From a virus, in IMG/VR virus record IMGVR_UViG_3300027733_000050, positions 1 through 64,000 of that record: a stretch of 64,000 bases of DNA, one strand, 5' to 3'. The notes below the pieces were generated by a model. That model saw only the letters and a program-made list of their open reading frames with translations, did not search any database and was not told the DNA's origin. Within the stretch, counting starts at the first letter, position 1. Each line of letters opens with the position of its first letter. This document shows, piece by piece, positions 21,915 through 47,091 of the stretch. A program made the position numbers and the translations under genes.

Positions 21915-22496
21915 ATGGCAGCAAACTATAAGATATTAGGTGCTATTGCACACAGGCTACAGGCACATATTGTAACGGCAGATACAGATGGCACATACAA
22001 TACTTACACCGTTGACAATACAGATGGACACTTTCTTGTTCCAGGACAGATCGTTACTATACCATCGGGATCTATTGATCCAGAGTTATCTGGAGACTAC
22101 ATTATATTGACTACTCCTGATATATTTACCTTTACAACATTCACAGGAACACTAACTACAATCACTCCGCCATATACATCAGTTGTATCTGATAATTTTA
22201 CTACCAACGAGGCTCCATTGTATACTGTTCCATCTGGAACATCTACGGTAGTTAGCTCTATAACGGTGTGCAATACTGGTACAGGGATAGAAACTTTTAA
22301 GATAAGAATACAAAAATCTTTTTCAACAAATCTGTTTGCAAACAAGGCAGACTATCTTTACTATAACTTACCTTTAAAGTCAGGCGATACATTTATTGCA
22401 ACAATAGGAACTACTTTATCTGCATCAGATATTGTGTATGTATCGTCAAGCAACAGGGCAGTTCAGTTTATGGCATTCGGATCAGAAATATATTAA
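21915..22496 (+). CDS. hypothetical structural protein (193 aa)
   Basis: ORF track; T/S-rich. Confidence 0.45.
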   Translation: MAANYKILGAIAHRLQAHIVTADTDGTYNTYTVDNTDGHFLVPGQIVTIPSGSIDPELSGDYIILTTPDIFTFTTFTGTLTTITPPYTSVVSDNFTTNEAPLYTVPSGTSTVVSSITVCNTGTGIETFKIRIQKSFSTNLFANKADYLYYNLPLKSGDTFIATIGTTLSASDIVYVSSSNRAVQFMAFGSEIY

Positions 22497-27411: not shown

Positions 27412-30400
27412 ATGGCAGAAGAACAAGATATAACTCAAGTTGATCAAACTAGTTTAGATATACCTAGCTCCGATCTTGTGGCATCGTCTACAACAGAGGA
27501 GGAGAAGCCTAAACCTACTCCAAAGCCTGATCCTACATTTAGGAAGAAAATTTGGAATGGATTAGTAGCCCTTAATAGCAAAGGTAAAATTAAGTTAAGT
27601 TTAAAATCAGAACAAGAGTTTTATACTAAACTTGATGCTGATCAAGAATATGCTAGACAGTTATATTCTAATTTAAAAAAGGTTGTTCCTGCTGATAATC
27701 TTGATCAGGATGAGTCTGTGTTTCTTTCAAAAATATACGGCAAGCCAACTAAACCTGCTAACAGTGGGATGGCAGCTAATGAGCCAATGACTACTACTGA
27801 TAACAAAACTGCCAAAGTAGAGACCGTTTCAACTGATGCTTGGGAAGAGGCTTTATATACACCAGCTCAAGTAGCTATTGCAAGGAAGGAATTAGATGCT
27901 AACAACAAACAACCTACTCCGTACAAACTTCCTAGTGGCAAGACTGTAATTTTTAAATATAATTCTAAGGGTAACATTACTGCATCATACGCAACTCAGG
28001 GAGAGAAAGCAACTGATAAATTTTTTCAGTTGTCTAATGATGAGAAATTAAAGAAGGAATCTCAGTCAGCATTTTACAATTTTGATCAGATTTATGAAGA
28101 ACATCAAAAAGATCAAGATATTTTAAGAAAAGATCAAGAGGCATTAGATAGCAGAGGAAGTTCATTTGGAGGAATGGAATTGCAAGCTCCAAATAAATTA
28201 TCTAGCATAGATCGAATTAAATATAATAATAGACTTGAGTTATACGATTTAAAAATAAAACAAATTCATGATCAATTTGATGAGATTATAAAGTTTGGTG
28301 TTAATGAAAAGAATTATAAGCGTTTTATAACAATAGATAACAATGGATTTAGCGTTGTAAGCCAGTCAAAGATTGATAGTTTAGCCTCACAAATATTAAC
28401 ACATTATGGAGGAAATAATTCTTCTTATTTAAAAGAGATATTAGTAAAAAAACTGGAATCATATTTGAATGCTTTTCCAGGAATGTTAGAAGCATCAAAA
28501 AATACAGATAAAAAATTAAAATCAAAATTTGAGGCAGCAGCTGATGAAAAAGTTTCTTTGTTGAATAAGGCTCAAAACGAGAAATTATTAACAGAGGAGG
28601 AAATTAAAAATACATCAAAAGCATATTCTAATGAAGCTAAAGTAAAAGGTACTGAATTATCAAAACCTTATTTAGATCAAATCAAAACATTATCTGATCA
28701 ACAAAAATCATTAAACGATAATTTAGAAGCAGAGTCTAAAAAGTTTTTCTCTACTTTAACTGAAACAGATCCTGACATTAAGGCTTTATATGATAGTTAT
28801 TTAGCACAGGCTAAAGAGTTAGAAAATAGTCAATATAATAATCAAGAAAGAAATACATTAAATAAAAAATTTTATGATGACTTTGTTAAGAAAGCATCTC
28901 CTTTTTTTGAGGCTAAACAAAAGGAATTTAACGATAAATATAAAACAACTTTTGATCAAATAGGTCTTCAGATAAATGACTTAGCAAAAGAAATGAATGT
29001 TAAGTTAGCTGATTTATCAAGATCTTATAACGATAAATTTAGACTTTACCAGGATCAAAGGGTTGCACAGGGGAATAAAAAAATAGCTGATATACAAAAA
29101 CAGTTTCAAGCGATGGGTATATCAAAGGAGCTTTCTGATGAATATACAAGGGTATGGAAGGAAGAATTTGATAAATATCAATCTAAAAGAACAGCTCAAA
29201 TATATACTAAAAATGAGGTGGATAATTTTGGCCCTTTAGGATTATTTACAGAGTTTGGTAAAAGTGTATGGAATAATTTTGGCGGCACTTTAGAAAATGC
29301 TGGTACTGTTCTAGATTTTGATGCATTAAAGATATTAGGGGCTGAAATGAATAGAGGAGAGTACGGATTTAGTATTCCAGATATATCATTAAAAAGTTGG
29401 AAGGATATACTTAATCCATATAAAATTGCTGGATCTACAGGTCAGTTGGTTGGAAGAATGGTTCCACAAATTGGAGGTCAAATATTATTAGGATATGCAA
29501 CAGGTGGTGCTTCTTTATATGCTAGGGTTGCTCTTCAGACAGTTGCAGGTTATGCTTTTGAAACCATAGATATGGCTGGCGGTAAGTATAATGAAATATT
29601 AATGAAAACTGGTGATCCAGCGAAGGCTAGTAAAGCAGCTGAAGATTTAGCCTTTTTAAATTTAAGACTTTTGCCAACATATGGCTTAGAGGTGTTACCT
29701 TTTTTTGAAGAATTTAAAAATATTGTTAAAGGCAAAAGTTTACTTTCATATGCAGGAAGAGCAGGTATTGCTGGTGGAACAGAAATGTTAACAGAGACAT
29801 TTTTACAAGAACTTCCTCAGAATGCAATGGAGAGGAAAGTAGAGTTGGATGCTATGTACAATGCAAATGTAAGCCTTTCTGATATACTATTTACTAATGG
29901 TAAGACCTTGACTGATAAATCTGGTAAGGTATTAATTGATCAAGAATATCAAAGAACGATTAAGACAGATGCATCAGGTGATTTAAAGAATACATTTTTA
30001 AATGTAGGGCCATCATCATTTTTAATGGCGGCTCTTCCACATGCTGGAAGCTATGCTAAAACGACATATCAAGAGCTTTCTGGTAAAAGGATGTTTGCTA
30101 AATATAAATTAGGATTAGTAAACAGTAATCTTGCTAAACAAAAATTATTTGAGATTTTATTAACTAGAGGTGAAAATACAGCAGGGGCATTTTTAACTGC
30201 AATGCAAACATCTGGTATGGTATCAGAGGTAGAATTTAATGATATGTTATCATCGTTAGAGGAGATGCAAAGTCTAGCTGGTCTTTCTAAAAGAGAGAAA
30301 TTAAGCAAAGAAGACACCATGTTGTTAGGTGCTTTAATGTTTGAATATAAAACTCAAGAGAAGGCTTTAGCAAATCCAGAATTAACAGCTGATGAGAAAT

Positions 30401-32751
30401 CATTAATAGAGGAAAGATTAAAATATTCAAAGGATAACTTCAATAATTTTTTAAGAGGCAAAAAATCTGATTTTGTTATATTTAGAATAGGCAATACTGA
30501 TCACATAGTTAGCTACGATCAACTAGACAGATTAATGAATGATCAGGAATTTGTTAATAGCACAAAAGGTTCGTTCTCTATTTTTGTTGCTGGTAGTCAA
30601 GTAAATTCTAAGGGTGAAAACCTAAAAGAAAAGGCTATGAAAGTATTTGAGGTTCAGCCTTTAACTCAAGAACAGATTGATGACATGGAAAGGAATGGCA
30701 CTCCAGTGATGGATATATTTGCTAATACAGAGATTCCTAACCTAAATAGTTTAGTTCAAGATTTAGAAGAAAGAATGAATAATGCTGAGGAGATTGATGA
30801 GAAGGACATGAACTCTGCTATTGGAGGATTATACAAACAATTGCAAGATATACTTGACAACCATTACAACACTGAGAACGGAAAGAGAGCTGCTCAAATG
30901 TTGATGGATACAATTGAAAAACTTGAAAATTATGAATTTACAACAAAAGAAGAAACTGTCGATGTTAACGAGAGAACAACAACTCAAAGTATTAGAGAGG
31001 TTGTCAACGCAACAAAAAACATCTTTGGAAGGATCACAGGAACAGCTAAAAGCGGAGCCAAAAAATTCGCAAGAATCGTCACAGGATTCAAGCAGCAAGG
31101 AAAGTATTCAGTAGAAATCAACGAGAAGGATGAGGTTATTTTAACTCCTATGAGTGGAGCCCCTATCGTTCTTGGAAATAGAAAGGATTTAAATGGTAAG
31201 GTAAAGTTTGTTTCGTCTAGCTTTAGCGGAAAGACAGGCAAGATATCTACCATTACCTTCAGAGTAAACGAGGCTAACGAAAACGGTGTGATGCCAGAGG
31301 TTACCTTGTCTACAGCAGATGGATTTAGCTACGATGAATTGCTTGACATGGCTATCGATTTGAGGGCGATGGAGGTTGGTGAGGTTACTACAGAGGAGTT
31401 TGACAATGCAGTAACTGAGGTTGTTACAGGACAGAAGACTGTAAAGACTTTCCCTAATATTGGCAAGGCAGAGCAGAAGGCTAAAGCAAAAGCAGAGGCA
31501 GAAGCACAACAGCAAGCTGCTCCAGAGCAAGCACCGCAACAGACACCAGAGCAGATCAATCAAAGGGTACAGGTATTGCAGGCACAGCAGGAAGAGGAGT
31601 TAAAGGCTGCACAGGATATGATAAAGACATCAAACATCCGTAGCAGTGGAATGACCTTGAGCGAGGCTATAAAGGCAAGAGATGAGAAGGTAAAACAAAT
31701 CAGGGCTAAGTATAAAGTTCTTATTGATAACGCTAAGAAAGGCGTTACAGAGGAAACTCAGCAGGCTGAAGCAGAGCAGCAGCAGAATAAGGATGTTGTA
31801 GACATTACTTCAGACAACATTGAAGATTTGCAAAACATTCCTACTGAAAATAAATTTCAAAAGCGAGTGTTAAATGCGATACCTAACATATTAAAGGCGT
31901 TAGGTAAAATAGTTCCAGGAGTGAAGGTGTCTATTCACTTGACTACACAGTCTTACAGAGACAGTGTACTAAGAGATTCTAATGGAACAAATGATGGAAG
32001 AGGTACAAAGGGATATTATTATAGGGATAGCAAGACCATAAATATTGACTTATCAAAAATAAGCTCTATGGATGGTATGGTTACTACTTTCCACGAAGCG
32101 TTTCATGGTATGTATAAGGAGCTTCCTGATGGATTAAAAAATATTCTTTATGAATCTATCCAGACAATTGTTATGGGAAGTAGTTTTAGATTTAAAATAA
32201 AAACAAAATCTTATTTCAATAAGTTTGCTAAACAGTATACGAATAAAGATAAAAAGAAAGAGAAAGCAATACAGCAGGAAGAAGCAGTTGTTGAGTTCTT
32301 GGGCTATATGGCATCTGGTGGAGTTACATTAACTGTTCCAGGGTATAAGATGTTTATTGAGGCGTTGAACAAAATCCTAGATAAGATCGGTTTAGGTAGC
32401 TTTAAGTTCACCACATCTAATCAGGTAAAAGACTTTGCCAAGGGAGTTGTTAACGCAATGAAGACTGGACAGGATATTACTGAGTTAGTTCCACCATCAA
32501 CTCAAACGCAGCAAGGACAGCAGGATATCTCATTCAGAAATGAAACGGCTAAACTATTCGATCAGGTAAATAATTTAAAGGAAAAGGTTCAGGAAGCGGA
32601 AAATACAGCAGAAAAGCGTAAATTCGCAAGTGAAAGAAGAGAAATGTTGGCCGAGAATCCTTCCGTTAAGCTGATTGACGATAACTTCAAGAATATCATA
32701 GATCAGTTGAAGCAGAACGAAGAGTTTGAGTTTAAGGGCCCTTGCTTCTAA
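27412..32751 (+). CDS. giant virion protein (1779 aa), coiled-coil-rich, with a C-terminal zincin-like HExxH module
   Basis: Long K/E/Q-rich helical regions; ..INIDLSKISSMDGMVTTFHEAFHGM.. (HEAFH at nt 32092-32106), paralogous to the HExxH module of the 2914-aa protein; QQDISFRNE linker-type motif near the C-terminus. Confidence 0.55.
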   Translation: MAEEQDITQVDQTSLDIPSSDLVASSTTEEEKPKPTPKPDPTFRKKIWNGLVALNSKGKIKLSLKSEQEFYTKLDADQEYARQLYSNLKKVVPADNLDQDESVFLSKIYGKPTKPANSGMAANEPMTTTDNKTAKVETVSTDAWEEALYTPAQVAIARKELDANNKQPTPYKLPSGKTVIFKYNSKGNITASYATQGEKATDKFFQLSNDEKLKKESQSAFYNFDQIYEEHQKDQDILRKDQEALDSRGSSFGGMELQAPNKLSSIDRIKYNNRLELYDLKIKQIHDQFDEIIKFGVNEKNYKRFITIDNNGFSVVSQSKIDSLASQILTHYGGNNSSYLKEILVKKLESYLNAFPGMLEASKNTDKKLKSKFEAAADEKVSLLNKAQNEKLLTEEEIKNTSKAYSNEAKVKGTELSKPYLDQIKTLSDQQKSLNDNLEAESKKFFSTLTETDPDIKALYDSYLAQAKELENSQYNNQERNTLNKKFYDDFVKKASPFFEAKQKEFNDKYKTTFDQIGLQINDLAKEMNVKLADLSRSYNDKFRLYQDQRVAQGNKKIADIQKQFQAMGISKELSDEYTRVWKEEFDKYQSKRTAQIYTKNEVDNFGPLGLFTEFGKSVWNNFGGTLENAGTVLDFDALKILGAEMNRGEYGFSIPDISLKSWKDILNPYKIAGSTGQLVGRMVPQIGGQILLGYATGGASLYARVALQTVAGYAFETIDMAGGKYNEILMKTGDPAKASKAAEDLAFLNLRLLPTYGLEVLPFFEEFKNIVKGKSLLSYAGRAGIAGGTEMLTETFLQELPQNAMERKVELDAMYNANVSLSDILFTNGKTLTDKSGKVLIDQEYQRTIKTDASGDLKNTFLNVGPSSFLMAALPHAGSYAKTTYQELSGKRMFAKYKLGLVNSNLAKQKLFEILLTRGENTAGAFLTAMQTSGMVSEVEFNDMLSSLEEMQSLAGLSKREKLSKEDTMLLGALMFEYKTQEKALANPELTADEKSLIEERLKYSKDNFNNFLRGKKSDFVIFRIGNTDHIVSYDQLDRLMNDQEFVNSTKGSFSIFVAGSQVNSKGENLKEKAMKVFEVQPLTQEQIDDMERNGTPVMDIFANTEIPNLNSLVQDLEERMNNAEEIDEKDMNSAIGGLYKQLQDILDNHYNTENGKRAAQMLMDTIEKLENYEFTTKEETVDVNERTTTQSIREVVNATKNIFGRITGTAKSGAKKFARIVTGFKQQGKYSVEINEKDEVILTPMSGAPIVLGNRKDLNGKVKFVSSSFSGKTGKISTITFRVNEANENGVMPEVTLSTADGFSYDELLDMAIDLRAMEVGEVTTEEFDNAVTEVVTGQKTVKTFPNIGKAEQKAKAKAEAEAQQQAAPEQAPQQTPEQINQRVQVLQAQQEEELKAAQDMIKTSNIRSSGMTLSEAIKARDEKVKQIRAKYKVLIDNAKKGVTEETQQAEAEQQQNKDVVDITSDNIEDLQNIPTENKFQKRVLNAIPNILKALGKIVPGVKVSIHLTTQSYRDSVLRDSNGTNDGRGTKGYYYRDSKTINIDLSKISSMDGMVTTFHEAFHGMYKELPDGLKNILYESIQTIVMGSSFRFKIKTKSYFNKFAKQYTNKDKKKEKAIQQEEAVVEFLGYMASGGVTLTVPGYKMFIEALNKILDKIGLGSFKFTTSNQVKDFAKGVVNAMKTGQDITELVPPSTQTQQGQQDISFRNETAKLFDQVNNLKEKVQEAENTAEKRKFASERREMLAENPSVKLIDDNFKNIIDQLKQNEEFEFKGPCF

Positions 32752-32765
32752 AATAAATTACTACA

Positions 32766-33263
32766 ATGATTAAAACAGAAAAATTATCTAAAGATGTTGT
32801 GGCGATCCTAAATCATGGGATGCACAAGGAATTTGATCACATGTTAGCGTACAGAGGTGCTGCTAATTGGTGTAACAATAACGGTTTCTTTAAGGCTGCT
32901 GAGTATTTTGCTAAGGAGGCTGAAGAGGAATTTGGTCACGCTAAGAAGTATCAAGACTTCATGACTGACTGGAACGTAACACCAGATATCCCTAACCTTG
33001 ATCAACCAGTGATGGATTTTGAGAATCTTTGTGATGTTATCGAGACTATCTATGGCAACGAACTAGAGTTATTCCATACATACCAGGAGAACAGCACAGA
33101 GTTGTTTAATTCAGGCGAGATTGCGGTATTTGATTTCATGCAGTTTTACAGAAAGGCACAGAACGATTCTGTTAAGACATACAGCGATATGTTGAATATT
33201 TTAACTGGCACAAATTTAGATGATAAGTTCCAAATGTTAATGTTGGAAGAAAAACTATTTTAA
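32766..33263 (+). CDS. ferritin (FtnA-like non-heme ferritin)
   Basis: 165 aa; LNHGMHKEFDHMLAYRGAANWCNNNGFFKAAEYFAKEAEEEFGHAKKYQDFMTDWN aligns with bacterial ferritin [54 protein letters not shown]; ExxH ferroxidase motifs are retained; FDFMQFYRKAQ matches FNFLQWYVSEQ. Confidence 0.7.
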   Translation: MIKTEKLSKDVVAILNHGMHKEFDHMLAYRGAANWCNNNGFFKAAEYFAKEAEEEFGHAKKYQDFMTDWNVTPDIPNLDQPVMDFENLCDVIETIYGNELELFHTYQENSTELFNSGEIAVFDFMQFYRKAQNDSVKTYSDMLNILTGTNLDDKFQMLMLEEKLF

Positions 33264-33265
33264 TT

Positions 33266-36200
33266 ATGGCAAAACCTTGTATAGTAAAATATAAAGGAAA
33301 GGAATACAGTGTCGAGCAGTTCTCTGCTATGTTACACGATGGTTTGTTAAACAATCTTATTGAGTCAGGAGCAATCGACCAGAACAAGCTGAAAGGTGAT
33401 CTGAAGCTGTTGCAGGATAATGAGATTAGTTTTCAGTTAGAAAATATATTTTTAAATAGTCCTGACAAGCTATCTAGCTTAACAGAGGTTGCAAATTTTT
33501 TAAATGATTTTATAAAGGCAAACAAACTTTTTGAAGATAAAATAGAAAATGTTGCTGACGATATAGTTGTAAAGGAGTTTGCAAATCATATATCAAAGGA
33601 ATTAAAGGCATGGGACAAGGTGAAGGGATCTAAATATATTGGATTTTATGACGAAGATATTCCAGTTAGATTAAATCCAGAGCTACAAAAATTTGCAGAA
33701 AAAAGATACGGAAGAAAGTTACAAGATTTTGAGGTATCGTTGTATCATATTGTAAGTGCATTTGCATCTCCATCGGCCGATCCTAAGTTTGATTCTTCTA
33801 AGGGACTAGAGGTATTTGACAAGTATATGAAAACTGGTGTATTGACAGGATATACAGACAAGCAGGCAACTGAATGGGAAAAAAATGCAAAGGGGAAAAA
33901 AGTAGATACTGGAAGACTAAAATTTGATAAGAATGGAAATCCTGTTATGAAGCAGGTTGCAAAGGCATATGCCGTTGACTCTTTAGAAAAAGTTAAGACA
34001 GTTATCGATAAATTTAATGGAGATGTGGAGAAGGCTGTTAACTGGTTATTTTCTATACATAGCTATCAAGAACTTTCGGATATTATGAACCTTCCTACAA
34101 AAGGGGAAAAGGCATTATCTGAAAATGAATATTTATCTAAGTCAGATGGGGGGTACGGTGTATTTGCTGTAACTGGGGTAAAGCTAGGATCTTACATATT
34201 AAATAGAGTTGGCAATTACTCTACCGTTACAAAGGATATGTGGTACGCAAGAACCATGGCAAGGTTAGCAGGCGAGTCGTTATTAGAGGATGGTGAAGCT
34301 ATTAAAAGTCCATGGAGCTTAACAAAGGCTAATCTAAGAAAGAGAGTATTGGCTGATAAGGCTTTTGCTATAGTGGCCAAAAAATTAAAGACTACCCCAG
34401 CAATTATTCAGCAAAGAATATGGGACTTTGAAAAGAGACTGTATGAACAATTGGGGACAGTAGAAAAGGAAGGATATGCATCAGAAGGCTTTATTAAAAA
34501 AGCGAAGGAGATTCTTGGGGGAGATATTAGTTTCAGATTCGAGAAGTCTGGTACAGCTACCATAAAGAACGCTCCTAAGGGAACATACTTGAACATAGGA
34601 TTGCTGAAGGGCGAGACTGAAGAGTTGATATCTATTGACGAGGTTTTGTCTAACTTACCTTCAGATGTCAAGGTTGTAAAGCAGAGACAGGTTACAGGAA
34701 CGGAGCCTACTCTTGCGTTGCAGATCAGCAGAAAGATGAGCGATCAAGAAATGGAGGACTTCAGAAACGCTACTGCACAGATGGCTATCCCTCAGTTAAG
34801 CGATGGCAAGGGCGTTATACATGGCACGCAGGAGTGGGGAGAGTTCAACCCAGAGTTCTTTGTATTGCCTAACAATAAGCAGCTGTCAAGCATCGAAGGT
34901 GTTGAGATAACTAGCGTAGAGCCTAACGAAGAAGGGCCTAGTTTCCGTAGAGATGATATTGAGGCTACTGCTAAGGCGTTAGAGGGAGTTGGGTTAACTA
35001 ACATATGGCAGGCTGTAATAGGCAATAGAAAATATGGCAAGCCTGTAAGAGTTAAAGAGGATGGGAAAACATTTACTATTAAAAGAACAGATCCTGCTAC
35101 CAATGAGCCGTATGGATTTGAGCTTGGTGATGGATCGCCATATATTAGAACAGAGAGTGGTGAGTACACTAATGGTGACTCAACTTATGAATCATGGAAT
35201 CAATTCCTTCAAATTAACGAAGGTTCTGGAGTTTTAGATGGCATTTCAGATTTAAATGACACTACAGAGGCTGAGGTAAGGGCTAGAGAAAAAGATTTAA
35301 ATGTATCTTTTAATACTTTAAGCGACCTAGGATTCTGGAATAAGGCTAGCAATATTGTTGCTAATTTTTTAGGTTACGATTCTCCAATGCAAGCACAGGA
35401 GCAGAGCAAGGAAGATACTGAGATATGGAAGAATTTAGTTTCTAAGGCTGTAGATTTATTTAACTCTGGAAAGATTGAAAATATAGTTGATTTTTATAGT
35501 AAAGTATTTGGAATGTCTAAGGAGGAAGCCACTGACAGAAGTGGATACAAGACACCGTTTACTTATTTATCAGAGCAATATTATGATGCAAAGGATAACG
35601 GAAGTAATCCTAACTTAGTAAAGGCAGTTGAAGATCAAATTGGTGAGCAAGGTGGTATTTCATTCCGTTTGACAGAGCCATCAGGCGTTTCTTACAACGA
35701 AACATTAAAGATGGTGGGATTAACTCCATCATCATTAGAAGAATATGCAAAGACAATAAAGGTAACTCAACGACAAAAAAGAATTCCTGAGGCACAAAAG
35801 GCAGCAGAGGAATATAGAAAGGGTAACATAACTCAGGAACAGTATATAAAAACAGTAAGAGAGAAGCAGCCGATTACTCCTTTAAAATCTGTGCCAGTAA
35901 TACCATCCCTAAAAAGAGTTGTTACAAGTCTTGCTACCGACAAAGTAGAGAAAGGAATTATAGGATTAACAAAAGAGGTTCCTAACGGCACGCTGGTAGG
36001 TTTAAGATTAGATATTCCTGCTTACGATAGCTACGATACTTGGGTAGTGTCTGTACACGATGGTGCAAACAGAACTAGCAAAGGTGGATCTATTGGCTAT
36101 GGCCAGGCTGCTGTAATTAAAAATGTAACATTTGGTGCAGAGCCTAAGGCTACATTAGCAATTGCTGTAGATAAAGCAAAGGCTCCTATCGCTCGTATGT

Positions 36201-39200
36201 TTGGGGAGTGGGTAAACGAGGATCCACAGTCTGTAAAAGAAAGAGCAGAGAAGTTAATGAACGATCCTGCTTGGACACAGGTAGGAATGAATCCTTTTAG
36301 ACACAGCTGGTTTTATGACAAGGCTAACGGCAATCCTGTAATATCTGCTGACGAGGTTATTCAAGTAGGTGCTTTGGTATTGGCAAAGAATGTTGTGATG
36401 GGATCGATTACTGACAAGCGTTTTGCTACTAAAAATGACAAGGGAGAACAGATATTCTTCCGTAAAGAAGACAAGGTAAAGGGAAGCTACTTCGAGCCTG
36501 CGATGACAACTGACTCTAAGGGCAACTATGTATTCTTCCACTTCTCTACGGCTCCGTTGAAGTCATTGATGAAGGGTATCGACTCAAGAAAATACTACAG
36601 CACCAGAACATCGAGAGATGAGAAGGGATTGCAGTACGGTGTAGCATCTTACTATACAAAGCCTACAGACAGCGAGAATGTTGTTGGTGGGGATAAGTAT
36701 TATGTAACGATATCTCCTGACAAGGTATACCCAATGGATCTTGATCCTAACGGATACAGAGCTGCGGCAGAGAAGAAGATTAAGAAGAACACACCGTTCA
36801 GAGAGTCTAAGATCAGCAAGGAGATTGCTAATGCAGCTGCACGAGATGGCTACGAGATGGCCGTTGGAGAGTGGAGCTTTGACAGATCTGGATTAACCAA
36901 GAGCGAGATCCCTGAGTTCAGAGGTGATGCATTGGTTCCGTTGAAGCCTACAGAGATTACAGGCAAAGAAAAGTTCAAGACAGGAGAAGAAAGAGGTATC
37001 AAGACCGAGCATCCAGACAGAGCTAGATTGGCATTCAATCAGCAGGTAGAGGATCTTGCATCTGATATTGACTCTTATAAGTCTAGCAAGGGTAAGTTCG
37101 ATGATGCCTATGAGATCGCATCTACTGTTATGGTATACGGCGGTATCGTAGAGGATTACGGAACACCTAACCAGAGAGTAAGACCTCTTACAATGAAAGA
37201 GTTCGACACCATGACCAAGGGATTATCTCCTAAGCTAAAGCAAAGAGCTGAGAAGATAAGAGGTCAGATGGAGGATAATCAAGGTATGTCCTTCAGAATA
37301 GATGAAAAAGAAATAGAAAAACCTACAAAAAATGCTGATGGATCATTAAGATATAATTTTAATTTAATACAAAATGGGAAAAAGGTTGGTAATGTTGTTT
37401 ATGATATTTTAAAAAATAAATTAATAATCCAATCAATTAATTCTTTTAAAAATGGAATCGGTAAATTATATATTGAACAATTAAAAAATAAATATCCAGA
37501 CAAAAAAATAACTGGTTATTCAACTGTATCAGCAAGAGGGTTTTGGGAAAAAATGGGGGCCATTTTTAATGAAAGCGATAAACAAGAAAATTATGATGAT
37601 GACAGTGGCGATTTGACTGGATTTGAACTTCCAAACGAAATCTCCTTCAGAATAGACGAAAACTATAAGAACAATATTGAAAAGCAGTTAGGAAAGTTTG
37701 ACGAGCAAAATAAAAATAAAAAATTTCCATCTGCATTAGAGGTTGCTAAGTACGTATTACCGAAAGATATATTTGATCGATACAGAAATCTTTATGAGAT
37801 GGCTGCTAGAAATAATATTCAAGTTACTATTGACTTAGAGAGGTTGCCGTATAACGCAGTTGCAACTTACTCATATGGATTTATAAATCTTAGTAAATTA
37901 AAATCCTCTTATAATATAAATAACTACGAAGAGTTTGCTGAGGTTTTTAATCATGAAATTATTCATGGATTGTTAAGTAAAGGAATTGATGGATTTACAA
38001 AGAAATTTGATTTTCATAACAATTTACAAAACATAATGCAAGCTGTAATAGATAACTCTGATTCTGCAAGTGAAAATGTTAAAGCAATAATATCTTATAT
38101 TGTAGAGGCTGGTGAGGAATTTAAGGTAAAAGATTATTATAATGCAACAAAGGAAGAATCAGAATCGGGTAATTATAGAACTGTTAATGATTTAGAAGAG
38201 TTAATTACATATGCATTTACGAATACTGAATTTGCAGAGTTCTTAGATTCTATACCAGCATCAAAAGATATTGATGTAAAAGGTAAATCTATTTTTCAAC
38301 AGTTAAAAAATATTATTAGAGACTATATAAAAAAATTAGTTAAGGGGCCTACAGCACTTGATGAAATTAATTCTGTTTTAGATAAATTTTTGGATACAGC
38401 TTGGAATGAGCAAGACATCGCTGAAAGAAATAGCCAGTATAATTGGGGACTAAAGTTTAATGCTGACGAAATCTCCTTCAGAGCAGACATGGGCCAGAGA
38501 AGGATCACCAGCAACCCAAGATTAATGGCGATGCTGTATGGTGCTAACTTCAAGGACTTGAGAAGAGCTATCAATATATCTCCAGACTCATTCTATACTC
38601 CACAAAAATATTCACAGCTGAAGCCACAGATAGCAAACATGTCGGATGCAGAGTTGCTAGCAGCTATCGATGTAGATACAGCATTAGAGGATATATTCCG
38701 TAGCACAGATGGGCCAATCGTTGGTCTTGCTTTTATAGAGTACATCAACAGACTAAAGAATCTGATAGCAAACACTACAGATCAAAATGATATTGATCTT
38801 TACGAAGAGTTAATTCAAAATGCTTACGATTCTGTTGCTCCATTTACAACGAAGGTTGCTCAGATTTTAAGACAACTTGGAGAGATCAAGTCAACGATTA
38901 AGAAAGATGAGGTTCAGTTTTATCTTGACATGATCGAGTCATTGATTAATGCAAATGGTTATATGATTAATGAGGATCATAGGGATGCATTAAGAGGAAT
39001 CATAGAGGTTGTATTAAACAGCAAGAAGAACTATACAACATTGTTCCAGGATTTAGTAAACAAAGGTAGTGGTGTTACGGCACAGGACATACAAGATCTA
39101 AACATGGCAGAGGTTGAACTACAGAACGCTAACGCTGCATTGAACATGATCGTGGCATTCTTATCGCCTCCATCATCAAAAGATTTCTGGTCTGGAGTGT

Positions 39201-42010
39201 TAAGAGGGAACCTAATGTCTGTACGAAGTGCATTGACTGGATTATACTCTAACTTAATAAACATGGGAGTGTTTAAATACAGAAATCTTGTACAGTCTGT
39301 ATTGAGTATTCCATTTGCTATACTTAAAAAAGCTGGCATAAATACTTTTGGACTAGAAAAATATCAGTTTTTTAATACTCCAATTGTATCAAACATTAAG
39401 TACGGATTATTCCTAGATGTATTACAGGATGCTATTGTTGGTGTTACAAAGGCTATTGCTACATTAGGAAAGATAATGATCGGAAAGGAATCGTTTAGAG
39501 GGTTCCTAGATAAATCACCTACAGCCAACAGAGTATTTAATATTATAAAGTATGGTTCTTCAGCACTTGAGGGAGGATCTCCTGTGATATTAGATAAGAG
39601 TAACCACACGATGACAGCTATCAGAAAAGCAATGACATCTAAAGGTGGTAAGACTACACTGAATATTAGAGGAATGAAGATGGATGTAGCTAGCTCATTT
39701 AAGAGAACTAGTTTCAGCAAATGGTTTAAAGTTAACTATCCAGGAAGTGATTACAATTCATTATCTGCAAAGGATAAAAAGATTATTCAAGACGAATTTT
39801 TCAACGATCCTAAGGCTGCTGTACCAACAATAGGTGATAAGGCTGCTGTGTTAGGAAGAGCATTTATGGCCGTTAACTCTGAGTTTGTATTTAGATTAGT
39901 AGCCTTATCGGATTACCTTCCCAAGACTTATGCAAACAATATAGAGATGACTAGACTTGCTCAGACTCTTGGACTAGATGAGAATCAAACTCAGCTATTC
40001 ATGAGGGATCCTGCAAAGTACATAGAGATCATGTCAAATGTATTAACTCCAGAGGCTTTAAACTTTTGGATTGATACAGTAGCAGAGGTTACAGTTACAA
40101 AGGATACAGGATTAGGAAAGGCATCTACAGCTTTCGTAGAGGGCATAAAAAATTATGTTCCTATGAAATTAATGAGAGCATTCCCAGGATTAAGTGATAA
40201 CAAGGCGTTTATAAATGCTGTAGGTGTTTGGCAATTTATTATTGACTCTATTGTTCCGTTTGTTAAGATACCTATGAATGCTATCAGTTTAACAGCGGAC
40301 TTCTTAATTCCTAGTAAGCCGTTTATGAAGGCAATCTATTTTAGTGCATTAGCAATTAAAAATAAAGGAACAGATCAAGCTGAAGCATACGCATTGTCTG
40401 CAATGAAAAACTACTCTATGACCGTTGTAGCATTAGGTTTAAGATCATTAGCAGTTGGTTTGGTGTCAGTTCCAGGACTAGTTGTATTAGCACCAGGGAA
40501 GGATGATGACGATGAGAAGAAGAAAATGAAATCTAAGTTCTCAAGAATGTCAATCAATATCGATGCATTAAAGAGATACTTTACACCAGGAGAAGATCCT
40601 TCATATAAGGATGGTGATCAATACCACTCATTAACAGCATATGGTGTATTAGGGATTTTAATTTATAACTATGCATCAATCAATGACCAAGCTAACAAAA
40701 AATATTACGATGAAATAAGCAAGGCTCCTAAAAACTTATTGCCAAGCGAGGGTATTACATCAAATCCTTTTGATATGTCTACAAGTGGATTTTTAGAGCT
40801 AGAATTAAAGGCATTTGAGGCTAGTCAGTTCTTTATCGATCAGTCATGGTTCGTTGGTATTAATTCAGCGTTGCAGGGATTAACTGGTGGTGAAAAAGGA
40901 GCAGATCAGTTTGTAAATAATTACATAGGAACATTATTGTCTACGTGGTGGGGATTCTCTTCACATGCTCAACAAATATCTGATATGTACAGAGAGATAA
41001 CTGGTAAGCCAGTATTTGATGTAACGCTCCCAACAGAATTGCAGAATGTGAAAAAAGAAGGGTATCCAGGAGTATTTAGTGACCGTATATGGAACAACAT
41101 ATTTAAGAAGAATGAACTTATTCATGATGCTATTATGAAATCTCCAGAGGATAGTGAATACATTAAGTTTAGTATGTATGGTGAGAAAATGAGTCCAGTA
41201 GCAGGAAATACTAAAAATAAATTAGATGTTGCTTTGTCTATCGCAGCTCCAGCTAGAAGGGTTACTCCAAACTTAACCAAGGAAGAAAGATTTTACATGG
41301 CTGTATATGAAAACAAAAATAAGATTAATATTCCAGGGTATGAATTAAGTTTAGCTGAACCAACTATGAATAAAACAGAGAAGTTAAAAGTGTTTTATAA
41401 GGTGGCTGAGTTTGGTCAGGTAGCTGAGACAATAAATGTAATGATCATGCCAAAGGAATACAACAAGATTAACGAAATGGCAGGTGATGCCCTAAGGGAT
41501 TTACACTCTACTTTATTAAGCGAACAAGGTTTATTAGACTTTGAGGTAAGAGGAAAAGTTATAAGCCCAGAAGATATTATGTCCAAAAACTGGGGCAATA
41601 CTAAAGAGGTTGCAAATGTAAGAAATGCAATTGCTGTATCTATTTCAGAGGGGAATAAATTATTAAACACTTTCCTAAAACCATGGGAACTGTTTAGTAA
41701 ACCTGTAACTAATTATATTGGTAAGGAGGAGGCTGCTGTTATTCAAGAGGTAAGATCACTAATTGATACTAGACTATTAACTTACAAGGTTTTAAATCCA
41801 AATACAGGTAAAATGGAAATGCTTTCAAGTTATTTAGTGACTAACCCTGAGTTATCTAATAAATTATACAACCTAGCAAAAGAATCAATCCTATTGTATT
41901 TAAAGGCAGCTAGTGAAGCTATAAATAAAAACGATAAGTATAGAGAGCTATTAGACAACCCAGAAATAACAATAGAGCAAGAAAAAGCTAGAAAAGAAGG
42001 TAATTTTTAA
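33266..42010 (+). CDS. giant modular virion protein (2914 aa) with a recurrent ISFR linker motif, a GNAT-like module and a zincin-like HExxH module
   Basis: SFR tripeptide in a conserved context ((D/E/G)(I/M/P)SFRx(D/E)E) occurs seven times (nt about 34523, 34934, 35651, 37283, 37634, 38465, 39485) plus an ISFQ variant at 33418; GNAT-like KNGIGKLYIEQL...SARGFWEKMGAIF (nt about 37300-37620); FNHEIIHGL at nt 37952-37966. Confidence 0.6.
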   Translation: MAKPCIVKYKGKEYSVEQFSAMLHDGLLNNLIESGAIDQNKLKGDLKLLQDNEISFQLENIFLNSPDKLSSLTEVANFLNDFIKANKLFEDKIENVADDIVVKEFANHISKELKAWDKVKGSKYIGFYDEDIPVRLNPELQKFAEKRYGRKLQDFEVSLYHIVSAFASPSADPKFDSSKGLEVFDKYMKTGVLTGYTDKQATEWEKNAKGKKVDTGRLKFDKNGNPVMKQVAKAYAVDSLEKVKTVIDKFNGDVEKAVNWLFSIHSYQELSDIMNLPTKGEKALSENEYLSKSDGGYGVFAVTGVKLGSYILNRVGNYSTVTKDMWYARTMARLAGESLLEDGEAIKSPWSLTKANLRKRVLADKAFAIVAKKLKTTPAIIQQRIWDFEKRLYEQLGTVEKEGYASEGFIKKAKEILGGDISFRFEKSGTATIKNAPKGTYLNIGLLKGETEELISIDEVLSNLPSDVKVVKQRQVTGTEPTLALQISRKMSDQEMEDFRNATAQMAIPQLSDGKGVIHGTQEWGEFNPEFFVLPNNKQLSSIEGVEITSVEPNEEGPSFRRDDIEATAKALEGVGLTNIWQAVIGNRKYGKPVRVKEDGKTFTIKRTDPATNEPYGFELGDGSPYIRTESGEYTNGDSTYESWNQFLQINEGSGVLDGISDLNDTTEAEVRAREKDLNVSFNTLSDLGFWNKASNIVANFLGYDSPMQAQEQSKEDTEIWKNLVSKAVDLFNSGKIENIVDFYSKVFGMSKEEATDRSGYKTPFTYLSEQYYDAKDNGSNPNLVKAVEDQIGEQGGISFRLTEPSGVSYNETLKMVGLTPSSLEEYAKTIKVTQRQKRIPEAQKAAEEYRKGNITQEQYIKTVREKQPITPLKSVPVIPSLKRVVTSLATDKVEKGIIGLTKEVPNGTLVGLRLDIPAYDSYDTWVVSVHDGANRTSKGGSIGYGQAAVIKNVTFGAEPKATLAIAVDKAKAPIARMFGEWVNEDPQSVKERAEKLMNDPAWTQVGMNPFRHSWFYDKANGNPVISADEVIQVGALVLAKNVVMGSITDKRFATKNDKGEQIFFRKEDKVKGSYFEPAMTTDSKGNYVFFHFSTAPLKSLMKGIDSRKYYSTRTSRDEKGLQYGVASYYTKPTDSENVVGGDKYYVTISPDKVYPMDLDPNGYRAAAEKKIKKNTPFRESKISKEIANAAARDGYEMAVGEWSFDRSGLTKSEIPEFRGDALVPLKPTEITGKEKFKTGEERGIKTEHPDRARLAFNQQVEDLASDIDSYKSSKGKFDDAYEIASTVMVYGGIVEDYGTPNQRVRPLTMKEFDTMTKGLSPKLKQRAEKIRGQMEDNQGMSFRIDEKEIEKPTKNADGSLRYNFNLIQNGKKVGNVVYDILKNKLIIQSINSFKNGIGKLYIEQLKNKYPDKKITGYSTVSARGFWEKMGAIFNESDKQENYDDDSGDLTGFELPNEISFRIDENYKNNIEKQLGKFDEQNKNKKFPSALEVAKYVLPKDIFDRYRNLYEMAARNNIQVTIDLERLPYNAVATYSYGFINLSKLKSSYNINNYEEFAEVFNHEIIHGLLSKGIDGFTKKFDFHNNLQNIMQAVIDNSDSASENVKAIISYIVEAGEEFKVKDYYNATKEESESGNYRTVNDLEELITYAFTNTEFAEFLDSIPASKDIDVKGKSIFQQLKNIIRDYIKKLVKGPTALDEINSVLDKFLDTAWNEQDIAERNSQYNWGLKFNADEISFRADMGQRRITSNPRLMAMLYGANFKDLRRAINISPDSFYTPQKYSQLKPQIANMSDAELLAAIDVDTALEDIFRSTDGPIVGLAFIEYINRLKNLIANTTDQNDIDLYEELIQNAYDSVAPFTTKVAQILRQLGEIKSTIKKDEVQFYLDMIESLINANGYMINEDHRDALRGIIEVVLNSKKNYTTLFQDLVNKGSGVTAQDIQDLNMAEVELQNANAALNMIVAFLSPPSSKDFWSGVLRGNLMSVRSALTGLYSNLINMGVFKYRNLVQSVLSIPFAILKKAGINTFGLEKYQFFNTPIVSNIKYGLFLDVLQDAIVGVTKAIATLGKIMIGKESFRGFLDKSPTANRVFNIIKYGSSALEGGSPVILDKSNHTMTAIRKAMTSKGGKTTLNIRGMKMDVASSFKRTSFSKWFKVNYPGSDYNSLSAKDKKIIQDEFFNDPKAAVPTIGDKAAVLGRAFMAVNSEFVFRLVALSDYLPKTYANNIEMTRLAQTLGLDENQTQLFMRDPAKYIEIMSNVLTPEALNFWIDTVAEVTVTKDTGLGKASTAFVEGIKNYVPMKLMRAFPGLSDNKAFINAVGVWQFIIDSIVPFVKIPMNAISLTADFLIPSKPFMKAIYFSALAIKNKGTDQAEAYALSAMKNYSMTVVALGLRSLAVGLVSVPGLVVLAPGKDDDDEKKKMKSKFSRMSINIDALKRYFTPGEDPSYKDGDQYHSLTAYGVLGILIYNYASINDQANKKYYDEISKAPKNLLPSEGITSNPFDMSTSGFLELELKAFEASQFFIDQSWFVGINSALQGLTGGEKGADQFVNNYIGTLLSTWWGFSSHAQQISDMYREITGKPVFDVTLPTELQNVKKEGYPGVFSDRIWNNIFKKNELIHDAIMKSPEDSEYIKFSMYGEKMSPVAGNTKNKLDVALSIAAPARRVTPNLTKEERFYMAVYENKNKINIPGYELSLAEPTMNKTEKLKVFYKVAEFGQVAETINVMIMPKEYNKINEMAGDALRDLHSTLLSEQGLLDFEVRGKVISPEDIMSKNWGNTKEVANVRNAIAVSISEGNKLLNTFLKPWELFSKPVTNYIGKEEAAVIQEVRSLIDTRLLTYKVLNPNTGKMEMLSSYLVTNPELSNKLYNLAKESILLYLKAASEAINKNDKYRELLDNPEITIEQEKARKEGNF

Positions 42011-44755: not shown

Positions 44756-45664
44756 CTAAGGCATATAATAATACTGCGGTAGCGTTAAGTCAACGATGCC
44801 AAACTTATTTTCTGTTAGCATTCTTTTTTCTATAACACTGTTTCCTATCATTGGCCACGTATCATTTTGAATACAGTTTAGTATCTGCCCTAATACTTCT
44901 CTGTACTGAGATCTTCCGAATGCAATATCATCAGGTAATAACCTGTAGATACAATACTCAAACGGATAAGATTTCTCAATGGCAATGTAGAAATAAGAAC
45001 TGACCTGCTTCTGAGTTACCGCCTCTATCCCATCAATCTGAATAGCCGCTTGCATTGGGTAGTTATACCTTGCTACAGACGATGCAAAATCGTTTGGGTA
45101 AGCACTCTCAGTGGTCTTGATGTCTAGCACGACAATCGTTCCATTAGAAAGTTCGACAAATAGGTCTGGCCTAGTCTTCATGGGTAATCCAGTTCCAGCA
45201 TCGTTCCAATAAACAGATTGCTCAACCTTGCCCATAGATAAATATCTAGACAGTAACTCGTTTGCTATAATTGAATTGTACATGATATCAATGTTAGCAC
45301 TCAAGTCGGAGTCAATAATCTCCTTGCCTAAATCTTTTATTCGCTTTACATACTCTTTATTCTCAGTCTTAGCCATCGTACTGCTAGGAAACGGTAGGTC
45401 TGACTTTCTTAATACATGATACTGCATACTAAACTTTAATGGCTCCAGTATACGAGTGTGTACAATGGTTCCGATCTTAGATGCATCAGTTCTTTGCTCC
45501 TTCTCTCTGAAAGGATATCTGAGGAATTTATACATTGACTTCAACCCTTCCTTTAACCAGGAAGAGCTTATAGAGCCATAATCGTTATGATACGACTCTA
45601 TATCTACGTCAGGATGAATCTCAGCTTTTTTGTTGGGATCTATTGTCCATTTTGTGTAGAACAT
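44756..45664 (-). CDS. RecB-family PD-(D/E)XK exonuclease (YqaJ/Cas4-like)
   Basis: DLFVELSNGTIVVLDIKTT (D..E...D.K core) followed by YNYPMQAAIQ (QxxxY motif of the RecB nuclease family); adjacent to RecT. Confidence 0.65.
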   Translation of the reverse strand: MFYTKWTIDPNKKAEIHPDVDIESYHNDYGSISSSWLKEGLKSMYKFLRYPFREKEQRTDASKIGTIVHTRILEPLKFSMQYHVLRKSDLPFPSSTMAKTENKEYVKRIKDLGKEIIDSDLSANIDIMYNSIIANELLSRYLSMGKVEQSVYWNDAGTGLPMKTRPDLFVELSNGTIVVLDIKTTESAYPNDFASSVARYNYPMQAAIQIDGIEAVTQKQVSSYFYIAIEKSYPFEYCIYRLLPDDIAFGRSQYREVLGQILNCIQNDTWPMIGNSVIEKRMLTENKFGIVDLTLPQYYYMP

Positions 45665-45785
45665 GCTCTTGCTTTTTCTATTGCGTTTTTGACGTTAAAG
45701 TAATACTCTCCTATTGGAAGTTTTTTTTCTGATGATTCCTTCATGGCATCTAATCCTGCCTTTAATTCATCAAAGGAATCAAAAC

Positions 45786-46154
45786 TTAAAAAGGGAGATC
45801 ACTACCTCCAACAGTGGACTCTGGCTTAACAGTTACATTAAATCCAACAGGAACTGTCGCTGTTGCAGGGGCAGTAGCTGTGCTTGGTACAGACGTTGGA
45901 TATTGTGTAAAGCTAGGCGTTGGTACAGCCTGCACCGAAGGTGTTGCCTGAACGGTTCCTCCATTGCTGTTGTCTTCTTGCTGAACAGATCCGCTGAAGA
46001 AGTCTTTGCCTCCATTCTTAGACTGCTTCTTCCACAAAGAAACTTTCATTTTTCTTCCATCAGGCATCTCTAGTGTTCCTGACAATACTGGCTTGTTGCC
46101 ATTTGGTTCGTTTTCGAACAGCGTAATGTACGCTACATGTTTGTAATTTGACAT
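45786..46154 (-). CDS. hypothetical protein with Ser/Thr/Pro/Ala-rich C-terminus (122 aa)
   Basis: ORF track; orientation consistent with the minus-strand block, so the overlapping + ORF 45714-46073 is rejected. Confidence 0.45.
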   Translation of the reverse strand: MSNYKHVAYITLFENEPNGNKPVLSGTLEMPDGRKMKVSLWKKQSKNGGKDFFSGSVQQEDNSNGGTVQATPSVQAVPTPSFTQYPTSVPSTATAPATATVPVGFNVTVKPESTVGGSDLPF

Positions 46155-46159
46155 ATGTA

Positions 46160-46354
46160 TTAATTATTTAAGTGTTTTACTAATTGAATCATTATAAATA
46201 TTATGGACAGGATAAAGAACGCATCTCTGTATGCAGCCATTCTAGCGGAGTTAATTACTCTATTATTAAATAATGATAATAGAAAGTCTGATATAGACAG
46301 TATAGTTAACATGCACGAGAATAATACTATGCACAGGTAAGCTAATTCTTTCAT
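46160..46354 (-). CDS. small membrane protein (64 aa)
   Basis: ORF track; two hydrophobic helices. Confidence 0.35.
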   Translation of the reverse strand: MKELAYLCIVLFSCMLTILSISDFLLSLFNNRVINSARMAAYRDAFFILSIIFIMIQLVKHLNN

Positions 46355-47091
46355 TCCTCGTTAGGTATTTCAACAAAGTCAACATCAAGTAAGTCTTCTG
46401 TATGAACAGGATCTGGTGCTGTCTGTTGATCCATTGTAGACATTGCTGAAGCTAATCTAGAAATGTTCATTGCATCATTCTTAGGAAGGTACTTAAACAA
46501 TCTTCTGATGACTGTCTTTCTTGCCATCTCCGTAAAGTCTGTTCCCCATGCACCATTTAACTTCTGCGATTTCTTGTTCATATCTGAACGCATCGCAATG
46601 TTATACACCTCTTGTGCGGTCATGTACTCTACATACTTAGCATCGTTTGATCCAGTAGCAATAGCATACACACCAATGATATCACCAGGATTTCCATTGA
46701 TGACTGGCTTGTGGGTGATGCTTGTTGATGTTCCGTAGTTAATCTCAAATACATCATTGGCATACACAACCCTTGCCTCAACATTCTTTAAGATACCCGA
46801 ACTAACTAACAAGTAAATCAAGCCTTGGTAACCAGGTTGAAATACACACTTACCTTTTCTTGGAACAAGGTATCCATGTCCCATCACAGGATTAAGTGTT
46901 AGTCCACTCATTGCAATGTTTAATACAGAGCTTGCTACCGACTTAGGATCGCATGCTTGTAAGAATGTATTGTTTGATAAAGCCTGCAATGCGTACATTG
47001 CTTCCTTCTCAAATGCCATATCAGGGGCTATTTGTTTGAATCGCTCCTCCTGTGTAGCGATAGCCTGCTGGGCCAATTTAATGTTGCTCAT
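46351..47091 (-). CDS. recT: RecT-family single-strand annealing protein
   Basis: 246 aa; GHGYLVPRKGKCVFQPGYQGL core typical of RecT/Red-beta-like proteins; overlaps the upstream recombinase gene stop. Confidence 0.6.
   Translation of the reverse strand: MSNIKLAQQAIATQEERFKQIAPDMAFEKEAMYALQALSNNTFLQACDPKSVASSVLNIAMSGLTLNPVMGHGYLVPRKGKCVFQPGYQGLIYLLVSSGILKNVEARVVYANDVFEINYGTSTSITHKPVINGNPGDIIGVYAIATGSNDAKYVEYMTAQEVYNIAMRSDMNKKSQKLNGAWGTDFTEMARKTVIRRLFKYLPKNDAMNISRLASAMSTMDQQTAPDPVHTEDLLDVDFVEIPNEE

Follow-up and report, generated by a model that had tools for sequence, protein, structure and literature searches.

Why should one short peptide recur along a giant phage protein whose parts are unrelated to each other? 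This question is raised by a 64,000-nucleotide stretch of viral DNA (IMG/VR record IMGVR_UViG_3300027733_000050, positions 1 to 64,000; hereafter the window), in which an open reading frame (ORF) of 2914 amino acids contains the tripeptide SFR seven times. A first-pass annotation of this DNA had proposed that the protein is modular and that ISFR peptides mark the module boundaries. Comparison with homologues revealed that the peptide lies at the joints where cassettes have been exchanged between related phages, and it may also be the site at which the chain is cut. The giant ORF, its modules M0 to M7 and a neighbouring giant ORF are as follows.

33266..42010, plus strand: giant ORF, 2914 amino acids (aa); polyvalent, multi-module putative virion cargo protein
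33266..33436, plus strand: M0, 57-residue N-terminal leader delimited by comparison with relatives; ends NEISFQ (I54-Q57 = nucleotides 33425-33436)
33437..34537, plus strand: M1 (aa 58-424), HhH-GPD DNA-glycosylase-like; ends GGDISFR (ISFR at nucleotides 34526-34537)
34538..34948, plus strand: M2 (aa 425-561), no assigned function; ends EEGPSFR (PSFR at nucleotides 34937-34948)
34949..35668, plus strand: M3 (aa 562-801), no assigned function; ends QGGISFR (ISFR at nucleotides 35657-35668)
35669..37297, plus strand: M4 (aa 802-1344), composite, with an L5 gp82-like domain at aa 927-1032; ends DNQGMSFR (MSFR at nucleotides 37286-37297)
37298..37651, plus strand: M5 (aa 1345-1462), minimal GNAT-superfamily module flanked by the repeat TCCTTCAGAATAGA; ends LPNEISFR (ISFR at nucleotides 37640-37651)
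37652..38482, plus strand: M6 (aa 1463-1739), zincin metallopeptidase-like, HEIIH at nucleotides 37952-37966; ends NADEISFR (ISFR at nucleotides 38471-38482)
38483..42007, plus strand: M7 (aa 1740-2914), conserved C-terminal core of 1175 residues, no junction peptides
27412..32751, plus strand: neighbouring giant ORF, 1779 aa, with a zincin motif HEAFH at nucleotides 32092-32106

The seven SFR copies start at residues 422, 559, 799, 1342, 1460, 1737 and 2076 (Ser codons at nucleotides 34529, 34940, 35660, 37289, 37643, 38474 and 39491) and compare with 0.34 copies expected by composition, which bears out the first-pass estimate of well below one by chance. The pattern [IMPVL]SF[RQ] also occurs seven times in the giant ORF, against 0.18 expected (P ~1e-9). 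It includes an ISFQ variant at residues 54-57 (nucleotides 33425-33436); a further copy, QQDISFR, lies in the neighbouring ORF approximately 70 residues before its end (DISFR at residues 1705-1709, nucleotides 32524-32538). Both had been reported in the first-pass annotation, whose coordinates ran a few nucleotides upstream because context residues were included. The common context that it described for all seven SFR copies (acidic residue or Gly, hydrophobic residue, SFR, any residue, acidic residue) holds for six of them. The seventh (IMIGKESFRGF; residues 2076-2078, nucleotides 39491-39499) lies inside the conserved C-terminal core and has the same position in every close relative; its upstream context is hydrophobic, not acidic, and no homology breakpoint occurs there. 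It is therefore not a junction, contrary to the count of seven. The junction consensus, approximately 10 residues long ([EDQ][EDG][EGD][IPVML]-S-F-R-x-[DET][EDN]), is two-sided, with acidic residues or Gly at positions -2 to -4 and acidic residues at +2/+3, and is constrained on both flanks despite the modules on either side being unrelated. When all six frames of the window were scanned, SFR in this context was confined to the two giant ORFs, and the motif was absent from the ORFs of the capsid and portal gene region.

The giant protein is identical to the metagenome protein P0001, and a search of 5.8 billion proteins yielded 91 homologues of 1.8 to 4.9 thousand residues. Six close relatives (P0002-P0007) are 75-99% identical to it, yet each shares only 41-50% of the query. 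BLAST alignments of P0001-P0007 break at residues 57/59, 419/420, 557/565, 794/797, 1347, 1459 and 1734; in the six close relatives these breakpoints coincide with the in-context SFR and SFQ copies, all of which have one, and occur at no other position. The contigs of two relatives align colinearly with the window (76-98% DNA identity), and their DNA breakpoints lie on SFR codons (33441, 37308, 37643 and 38465/38482). The proposal that ISFR marks module boundaries is thus upheld at both the protein and the DNA level. Individual modules behave in the same way. The leader M0 is 85-95% identical in all six close relatives and is followed by differing sequence, with DNA homology to contig L001 stopping at 33441. 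M2 forms homology blocks bounded at 419/420 and 557/565, M3 is shared by the window protein and P0004 alone (breakpoints 794/797), the M4 block ends at residue 1347 in all relatives, and M5 is lost exactly between two SFR copies in P0002, P0003, P0005 and P0006. The core M7 is 75-99% identical and uninterrupted in all six relatives.

The flanks of the peptide have been recombined extensively. Across the clade, 28 contexts on the upstream side and 23 on the downstream side are paired in 34 distinct junctions; VEPNEEGP-SFR, the end of M2, for instance, precedes four different modules in relatives, and three different modules lead into SFR-FEKSGT. It follows that the protein is built as a cassette system with the peptide as its joint. 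In relatives, ART-PolyVal and DUF7178 domains are swapped in, the former at residues 1466-1588 of P0005, starting right after SFR. In the relative L002, an extra module of approximately 84 residues stands between two DISFR copies of the neighbouring ORF, with DNA breakpoints at 32522/32538. Taken together, these sequence comparisons show that whole cassettes have been inserted, deleted and swapped between related phages at the junction peptide.

Predicted structures place the junction peptide in flexible linkers. The first-pass annotation had asked for linkers rather than positions buried in domains, and five sites fall in low-confidence coil in AlphaFold models. The model of residues 40-470, built with 22 sequences, had a predicted local distance difference test (pLDDT) value of 83.7, and its only low-confidence gaps were model residues 1-17 (to the ISF of ISFQ) and 381-390 (exactly ISFRFEKSGT). 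These gaps, with pLDDT <50, are the sites at residues 54-57 and 420-429; in the first, ISF lies directly before the first M1 helix, and the second separates the last M1 helix from the first M2 strand. In the model of residues 1330-1750, the sites at 1342, 1460 and 1737 were in coil with pLDDT <50 and confident structure resumed two residues after ISFR-1462; this model was built from a shallow alignment and is weaker evidence.

Annotation of the giant ORF and of each of its modules with Pfam and PHROGs identified only a sub-threshold L5 gp82 match and phrog_586, and phmmer searches against Protein Data Bank (PDB) sequences gave no match at E ≤ 1 to the giant ORF; for the 1779-residue neighbour there were six hits, all weak and unrelated. 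The fold of M1, which is the most widespread of the modules, is that of an HhH-GPD DNA glycosylase. M4 carries the domain resembling mycobacteriophage L5 gp82 (PF25735, E 1e-4 to 3e-5, below the Pfam cut-off; phrog_586), and tblastn matched M4 to a portal-adjacent protein of podophage MW202701, to the Roseobacter phages CRP-9 and CRP-207 and to a giant Elemovirus 'structural protein'. The N-terminal part of M4 (residues 794-1066) is 43% identical to part of the 994-residue MW202701 protein (locus L006, 8683-11667). MW202701 is an unrelated 54.8-kb podophage in which this M4-like gene lies directly after the portal gene, a common place for head-associated cargo proteins.

M5 gave no direct Pfam match. 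A HMMER search of 1.84e9 representative sequences identified 14 relatives, mostly stand-alone proteins of 105-123 residues, several of which pass the Pfam GNAT cut-offs; G53/G55, corresponding to the G-x-G loop of GNAT motif A, and FW82-83 are conserved in this family, and the stand-alone relatives stop just before the residues corresponding to PNEISFR. A profile of M5 and its relatives (A2) had 66 PDB matches at E ≤ 1, and the 60 listed were essentially all GNAT-type acetyltransferases, with RibT (E 7e-7) the best among the matches listed. The top 50 Foldseek matches were also all GNAT proteins, with weak E values (~1e-2) from a model with pLDDT 25-60 and single-sequence coverage. On this profile evidence M5 is a member of the GNAT superfamily with a predicted acetyltransferase activity, in agreement at the superfamily level with the first-pass assignment of the 118-residue module, and the signature on which that assignment had been based (KNGIGK...ARGFWEKMGAIF) is present. 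M6 contains the FNHEIIHGL sequence that had been noted, with an invariant HExxH and a downstream Glu, in a zincin fold of the lethal-factor/PPEP type; its structural neighbours are anthrax lethal factor and the Pro-Pro endopeptidases (M34 zincins). At the level of the modelled fold M6 is a zincin metallopeptidase-like module, and peptidase activity is predicted. HExxH is present in 79 of 99 family proteins, and M6-type relatives begin directly after the junction peptide of their own lineage.

Hydropathy identified two transmembrane-like stretches in M7, at residues 2315-2333 (nucleotides 40208-40264) and 2390-2408 (nucleotides 40433-40489). They are followed by an acidic DDDDE run (residues 2413-2417), and a similar GDDDDEEK element was seen by eye in the 3694-residue 'structural protein' of Flavobacterium phage elemoE (L003). 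At the other end of the protein, the M0 leader (MAKPCIVKYKGKEYSVEQF..L) is similar to the N-terminal sequences of far smaller zincin proteins from other metagenomes (P0093-P0095 and P0097; for example MGAPCRVTFDGKVF.. and ..IPCDFITTKGGKEV..), in which a lineage-specific junction peptide (KMQASVGGR, GSVGV) follows the leader. M0 may be a packaging or targeting leader; no second copy of it was found in the window.

Over all homologues SFR was observed 68 times against 29 expected, and nearly all of the excess came from P0001-P0007; the motif as spelled is therefore specific to this clade. Other lineages appear to use peptides of their own. Across the family, the N-terminal boundary of M1 carries a nearly invariant Q before the first helix (QAExLF), and the peptides before and after M1 match within a lineage: SKSQ/KSKSQ, SRSQ/SRSQ, IKAQ/IKAQ, RKKQ/RKKR and SRKQ/SRSQ, with ISFQ/ISFR in the window lineage. 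Recurrent lineage peptides, from patterns chosen post hoc, include GREQK (four copies), KIK[QK]Q (four), K[SA]KSQ (four), Q[AF]SVGNR (three) and [PI]AFS[KRL] (five), and outside the window clade the junction peptides usually end in Q (SRSQK, KIKQQK, GREQK, KSKSQ, QASVGNR). Insertions or deletions of whole cassettes bounded by two peptide copies were identified between P0054 and P0047, P0038 and P0031, P0035 and P0037, and P0067 and P0065. An unbiased 6-mer BLOSUM self-comparison missed ISFR, which has variable flanks, and uncovered the peptides of other lineages.

What, then, is the peptide for? In the mechanism that we propose, the giant ORF would encode a phage polyvalent multi-effector that a crAss-like podophage packages in its virion and ejects into the host, laid out as a conserved 57-residue leader, six cassettes and a 1175-residue core with membrane-like segments. 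Cleavage of the peptide would fall at or beside the R, which is Q in most other lineages, and the protease that reads it would be the zincin of the same protein pair, through HEIIH in M6 or HEAFH at the end of the neighbour. Cutting in the capsid or after ejection would set the leader free, and each enzyme could then act on its own. A site for a phage-encoded, co-evolving protease is what the data would lead one to expect, given the two-sided linker consensus, its placement after the 57-residue leader and before the 70-residue C-terminal tail of the neighbour, its lineage-specific spelling, its absence from the other virion proteins and the conserved zincins. The protein pair contains two zincin modules with intact motifs, which may be specific for the junction peptide, and the tolerated fission of the giant gene right after a zincin is also counted in favour of cleavage. 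We consider it an evenly balanced proposition that the junction peptide is a cleavage site, most likely for a zincin acting in cis.

Several observations weigh against cleavage of this kind or against its generality. P0004 and P0007 have all SFR junctions and no HExxH in the giant protein, so that the neighbour's zincin would have to act in trans, and the P0045-P0058 lineage has SRSQK junctions and likewise no HExxH in the giant protein. The virion RNA polymerase (RNAP) of phage N4, which bears a metallopeptidase domain, is packaged unprocessed (PMC5512222). The low pLDDT at the sites at 1342, 1460 and 1737 is attributable to the shallow alignment. A pre-defined test for the recurrence of degenerate 3-mers in 32 lineages was weakly positive (83 observed vs 58 expected), and the sharper lineage patterns were chosen post hoc; the generalization of lineage-specific junction peptides to the whole family is therefore suggestive rather than established.

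These observations give room to two other accounts in which the peptide acts as protein. In one, it is never cleaved and serves as a linker motif in a single chain, docking to the capsid interior, portal, tail lumen or a packaging chaperone, or setting the register of unfolding and threading. Peptide-level selection and a linker location would suit a binding motif equally well, and the motif is absent from the 1175-residue core and from other virion proteins. There are also precedents, since gp45 of PhicrAss001 is bound at several points (portal and tail barrel) as one extended chain (PMC10172136) and the N4 polymerase is packaged uncut (PMC5512222). We nevertheless consider docking without cleavage unlikely: a motif at every boundary and only there is harder to explain by docking than as a release site, modules with unrelated targets (DNA glycosylase-like, GNAT, and ART in relatives) would remain tethered, the placement after a short leader and before a short C-terminal tail is the classic layout of a propeptide, and zincins are conserved next to the motif. 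In the other account the peptide is cut by a different protease, either an unrecognized phage enzyme such as a prohead protease or a host enzyme, and the zincins are effectors against host proteins. A Q or R at P1 is atypical of zincins, whose specificity usually lies on the primed side, and the junctions of P0004, P0007 and the SRSQK lineage persist without HExxH in the giant protein. Iyer et al. allow that metallopeptidase domains may be effectors as well (PMC5512222). This account is quite improbable in our judgement. No prohead protease of the S49, S78, U9 or U35 type or other protease was recognized by Pfam or PHROGs in most, though not all, of the other ORFs of at least 120 residues; the ORFs of the capsid and portal region, the usual targets of a prohead protease, lack the motif; variation of the motif between related phages points to a phage-encoded reader; and the neighbour's zincin is retained in every close-clade genome examined. 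Self-cleavage by a Ser nucleophile was considered and rejected, as it needs a dedicated fold around the site and the flanks here are unrelated modules.

A further account denies the motif any protein function and treats it as a DNA microhomology joint for RecT-type annealing and in-frame shuffling, with peptide identity a by-product. Cassettes do exchange exactly at the motif, and the genome encodes RecT, a DUF3799 (PF12684) protein and a resolvase. Direct repeats are also present: a 14-nucleotide repeat, TCCTTCAGAATAGA, at 37289 and 37643 brackets the GNAT cassette M5, and a 17-nucleotide identity, ACGAAATCTCCTTCAGA, links two other copies at 37635 and 38466. The latter had been found in the first-pass annotation and taken as a sign of duplication or of selection at the DNA level. 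Codon usage supports selection and moves it to the peptide: S-F-R is written in 14 codon versions among the 22 junction copies of three genomes, including switches between AGY and TCN, with all six Ser codons and with AGA, CGT and CGA for Arg. Such diversity is the opposite of selection for DNA identity and therefore points to selection on amino acids. Only three of the eight copies in the window share at least 9 nucleotides with another copy, and the other five have fewer than 9 in common with any. Residues -4 to +3 are constrained across unrelated modules, and at that module boundary distant lineages retain a peptide that is alike in character and ends in Q. A purely DNA-level role is thus highly improbable; the short repeats at three junctions may help recombination and do not explain the motif. 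Chance, a compositional artefact or the presence of SFR within a repeated domain can be practically dismissed. One of the seven copies, at residue 2076, is indeed an unrelated internal occurrence, but the motif in context has a probability of ~1e-9, its sites match every homology breakpoint, and it is not part of a repeated domain because the flanking modules are unrelated to each other.

The genes around the two giant ORFs bear on the proposed packaging, and the relevant features of the window are given below.

5395, plus strand: terminase, upstream of the giant ORFs
7228, plus strand: portal, upstream of the giant ORFs
15581-16243, plus strand: ring protein 2 (PF25702, 5e-11)
16243-16959, plus strand: ring protein 1 (PF24228, 1e-9)
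16961-21676, plus strand: muzzle protein (PF25731, 1e-46)
32766..33263, plus strand: ferritin-like ORF, 165 aa (PF00210, E 2.7e-15), between the two giant ORFs

The terminase, portal, ring 1, ring 2 and muzzle genes lie upstream of the giant ORFs on the same strand, and the same context was found in L001 and L002 and at the loci of two distant homologues (L004 and L005). In PhicrAss001 the genes after the muzzle gene encode the virion cargo proteins gp45-gp50 (PMC10172136), and by analogy the position of the giant ORFs after crAss-type ring and muzzle genes fits the first-pass suggestion of a packaged or ejected multi-effector carrier. Delivery into the host together with the DNA would be consistent with this gene position and with the 'structural protein' label of the related Elemovirus protein; no virion proteomics of Elemovirus was found in the literature. 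Neither giant ORF contains the catalytic DFDxD/DxDGD (DPBB) motif of RNAP, and the phmmer searches of PDB sequences brought up no similarity to gp66 of phi14:2. In this muzzle-bearing phage of approximately 70 kb, effector cargo seems to take the place of a virion RNAP. Megablast of the giant gene and tblastn of the portal gave no match among 50,697 phage records.

The neighbouring ORF is colinear in BLAST alignments with residues ~170-1700 of P0013, P0043, P0063, P0089 and other homologues, including HExxH, and is the counterpart of the N-terminal 1400-1700 residues of single-ORF relatives. The giant gene has therefore been split just after the zincin in the window lineage. The ferritin-like ORF that lies at the split is kept in L001 and L002 (9501-9998 in each), and in the distant relative L004, whose giant gene is single, a ferritin ORF (21831-22325) follows closely behind it; ferritin and the cargo genes have thus stayed linked.

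Further along the window, 44756-47768 on the minus strand contains a recombination module of a DUF3799 ORF (PF12684), a RecT ORF and a resolvase ORF, annotated from the colinear L001. Cassettes could be exchanged by such a single-strand-annealing system acting on the 14-17-nucleotide junction repeats. The terminase gene is closely preceded by an SPFH/Band-7 domain ORF (3709-4248; E 5e-22) and a VRR-NUC nuclease ORF (4342-4806, minus strand).

Giant proteins of this kind are not undescribed, as the first-pass annotation had supposed. On its sequence features the protein is a member of the known class of polyvalent proteins, here in a crAss-like phage. Iyer et al. 2017 (PMC5512222) described giant phage polyvalent proteins that combine zincin metallopeptidase, ART, GNAT and other domains, so that the module architecture, the nested GNAT and the zincin are not new. 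The class combines 2-15 unrelated domains in one polypeptide, and the window protein has HhH-GPD-like (M1), L5 gp82-like (M4), GNAT (M5) and zincin (M6) domains; it is encoded by a phage among late and virion genes, and its zincin hub has HExxH and a downstream Glu. Precomputed Pfam assignments for the homologues (P0004-P0090) include ART-PolyVal (PF18760), LPD23 (PF18838), LPD38 (PF18857), InPase (PF18823), DUF3293 and GNAT. One giant chain of unrelated conflict-type domains around a metallopeptidase hub, in a late or virion gene position, is common to both. Autoprocessing of polyvalent proteins into functional units by their metallopeptidase domains was proposed in the same paper (PMC5512222), which defines no processing site and does not use the word 'linker', whereas here a junction peptide stands at every cassette boundary. 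The window system also differs in that this peptide is lineage-specific and that the gene is in two parts in the window lineage.

The cargo proteins of Crassvirales (gp45-gp50 of PhicrAss001; gp65-gp67 of phi14:2) resemble the window pair in several respects. Their genes lie downstream of ring and muzzle genes, they are 150-330 kDa in size, one of them has a zincin-like domain, their giant genes undergo fusion and fission between phages, and cleavage has been proposed; a passage of the preprint on the phi14:2 RNAP refers to 'huge polyproteins, likely cleaved' with a zincin domain (bioRxiv 10.1101/2020.03.07.982082). The window ORFs differ in lacking the RNAP motif, and their payload would be effector cassettes, not a virion RNAP. 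Crassvirales genomes are approximately 100 kb in size, compared with ~70 kb for the window phage. Packaged proteins of other phages provide a second parallel: internal proteins IPI-III of T4 carry a capsid-targeting sequence that gp21 cuts at L/I-x-E, and the inner-body proteins of phiKZ are cut by gp175 at S/A/G-x-E. In both cases a short conserved N-terminal leader is followed by a site of a few residues that recurs in packaged proteins, a layout that the window pair, as putative cargo, shares. Their prohead protease also cuts capsid proteins, whereas the sites described here occur only in one or two giant chains, the candidate protease is a zincin in cis and R or Q is the last residue of the site. 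Polyproteins of RNA viruses, in which 3C/3CL proteases cut at Q followed by G, S or A, are alike in being single chains of many enzymes with an embedded protease (in the window protein a candidate one, the zincin) and a short boundary site, often with Gln at P1, and the window protein has a short consensus at domain boundaries in exposed linkers. It differs in belonging to a double-stranded DNA phage, in having a candidate protease of zincin rather than chymotrypsin-like fold and in the exchange of cassettes between genomes, and its cleavage is an inference. In the parts of the literature covered by our search, no junction or cleavage motif was found described for such giant proteins; the junction peptide, its role as a cassette joint and its probable role as a cleavage site appear to be new.

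Tentatively, and at somewhat less than even probability, we propose that muzzle-bearing crAss-like podophages carry a programmable array of effector cassettes, in which a lineage peptide (ancestrally Gln-ended, ISFR here) serves both as the recombination joint and as the cleavage code for a co-evolving lethal-factor-like zincin in the same chain. If so, arbitrary enzymes could be packaged as one thread, injected and freed as separate proteins on the host side. Phages and conjugative elements commonly encode polyvalent proteins, whose self-cutting by metallopeptidase domains has been proposed since 2017; the idea stayed untested because no site had been defined. A peptide at every cassette boundary makes the predictions exact, namely neo-termini at SFR and peptide substrates for the zincin. 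The junction peptide also explains the turnover of effector repertoires, since it is where whole cassettes are swapped, and it supplies a rule by which domains without an assigned function can be delimited in thousands of giant proteins from metagenomes. Should cleavage be confirmed, phages would offer, in the leader-junction-cassette layout, a natural template for packing foreign proteins into their capsids.

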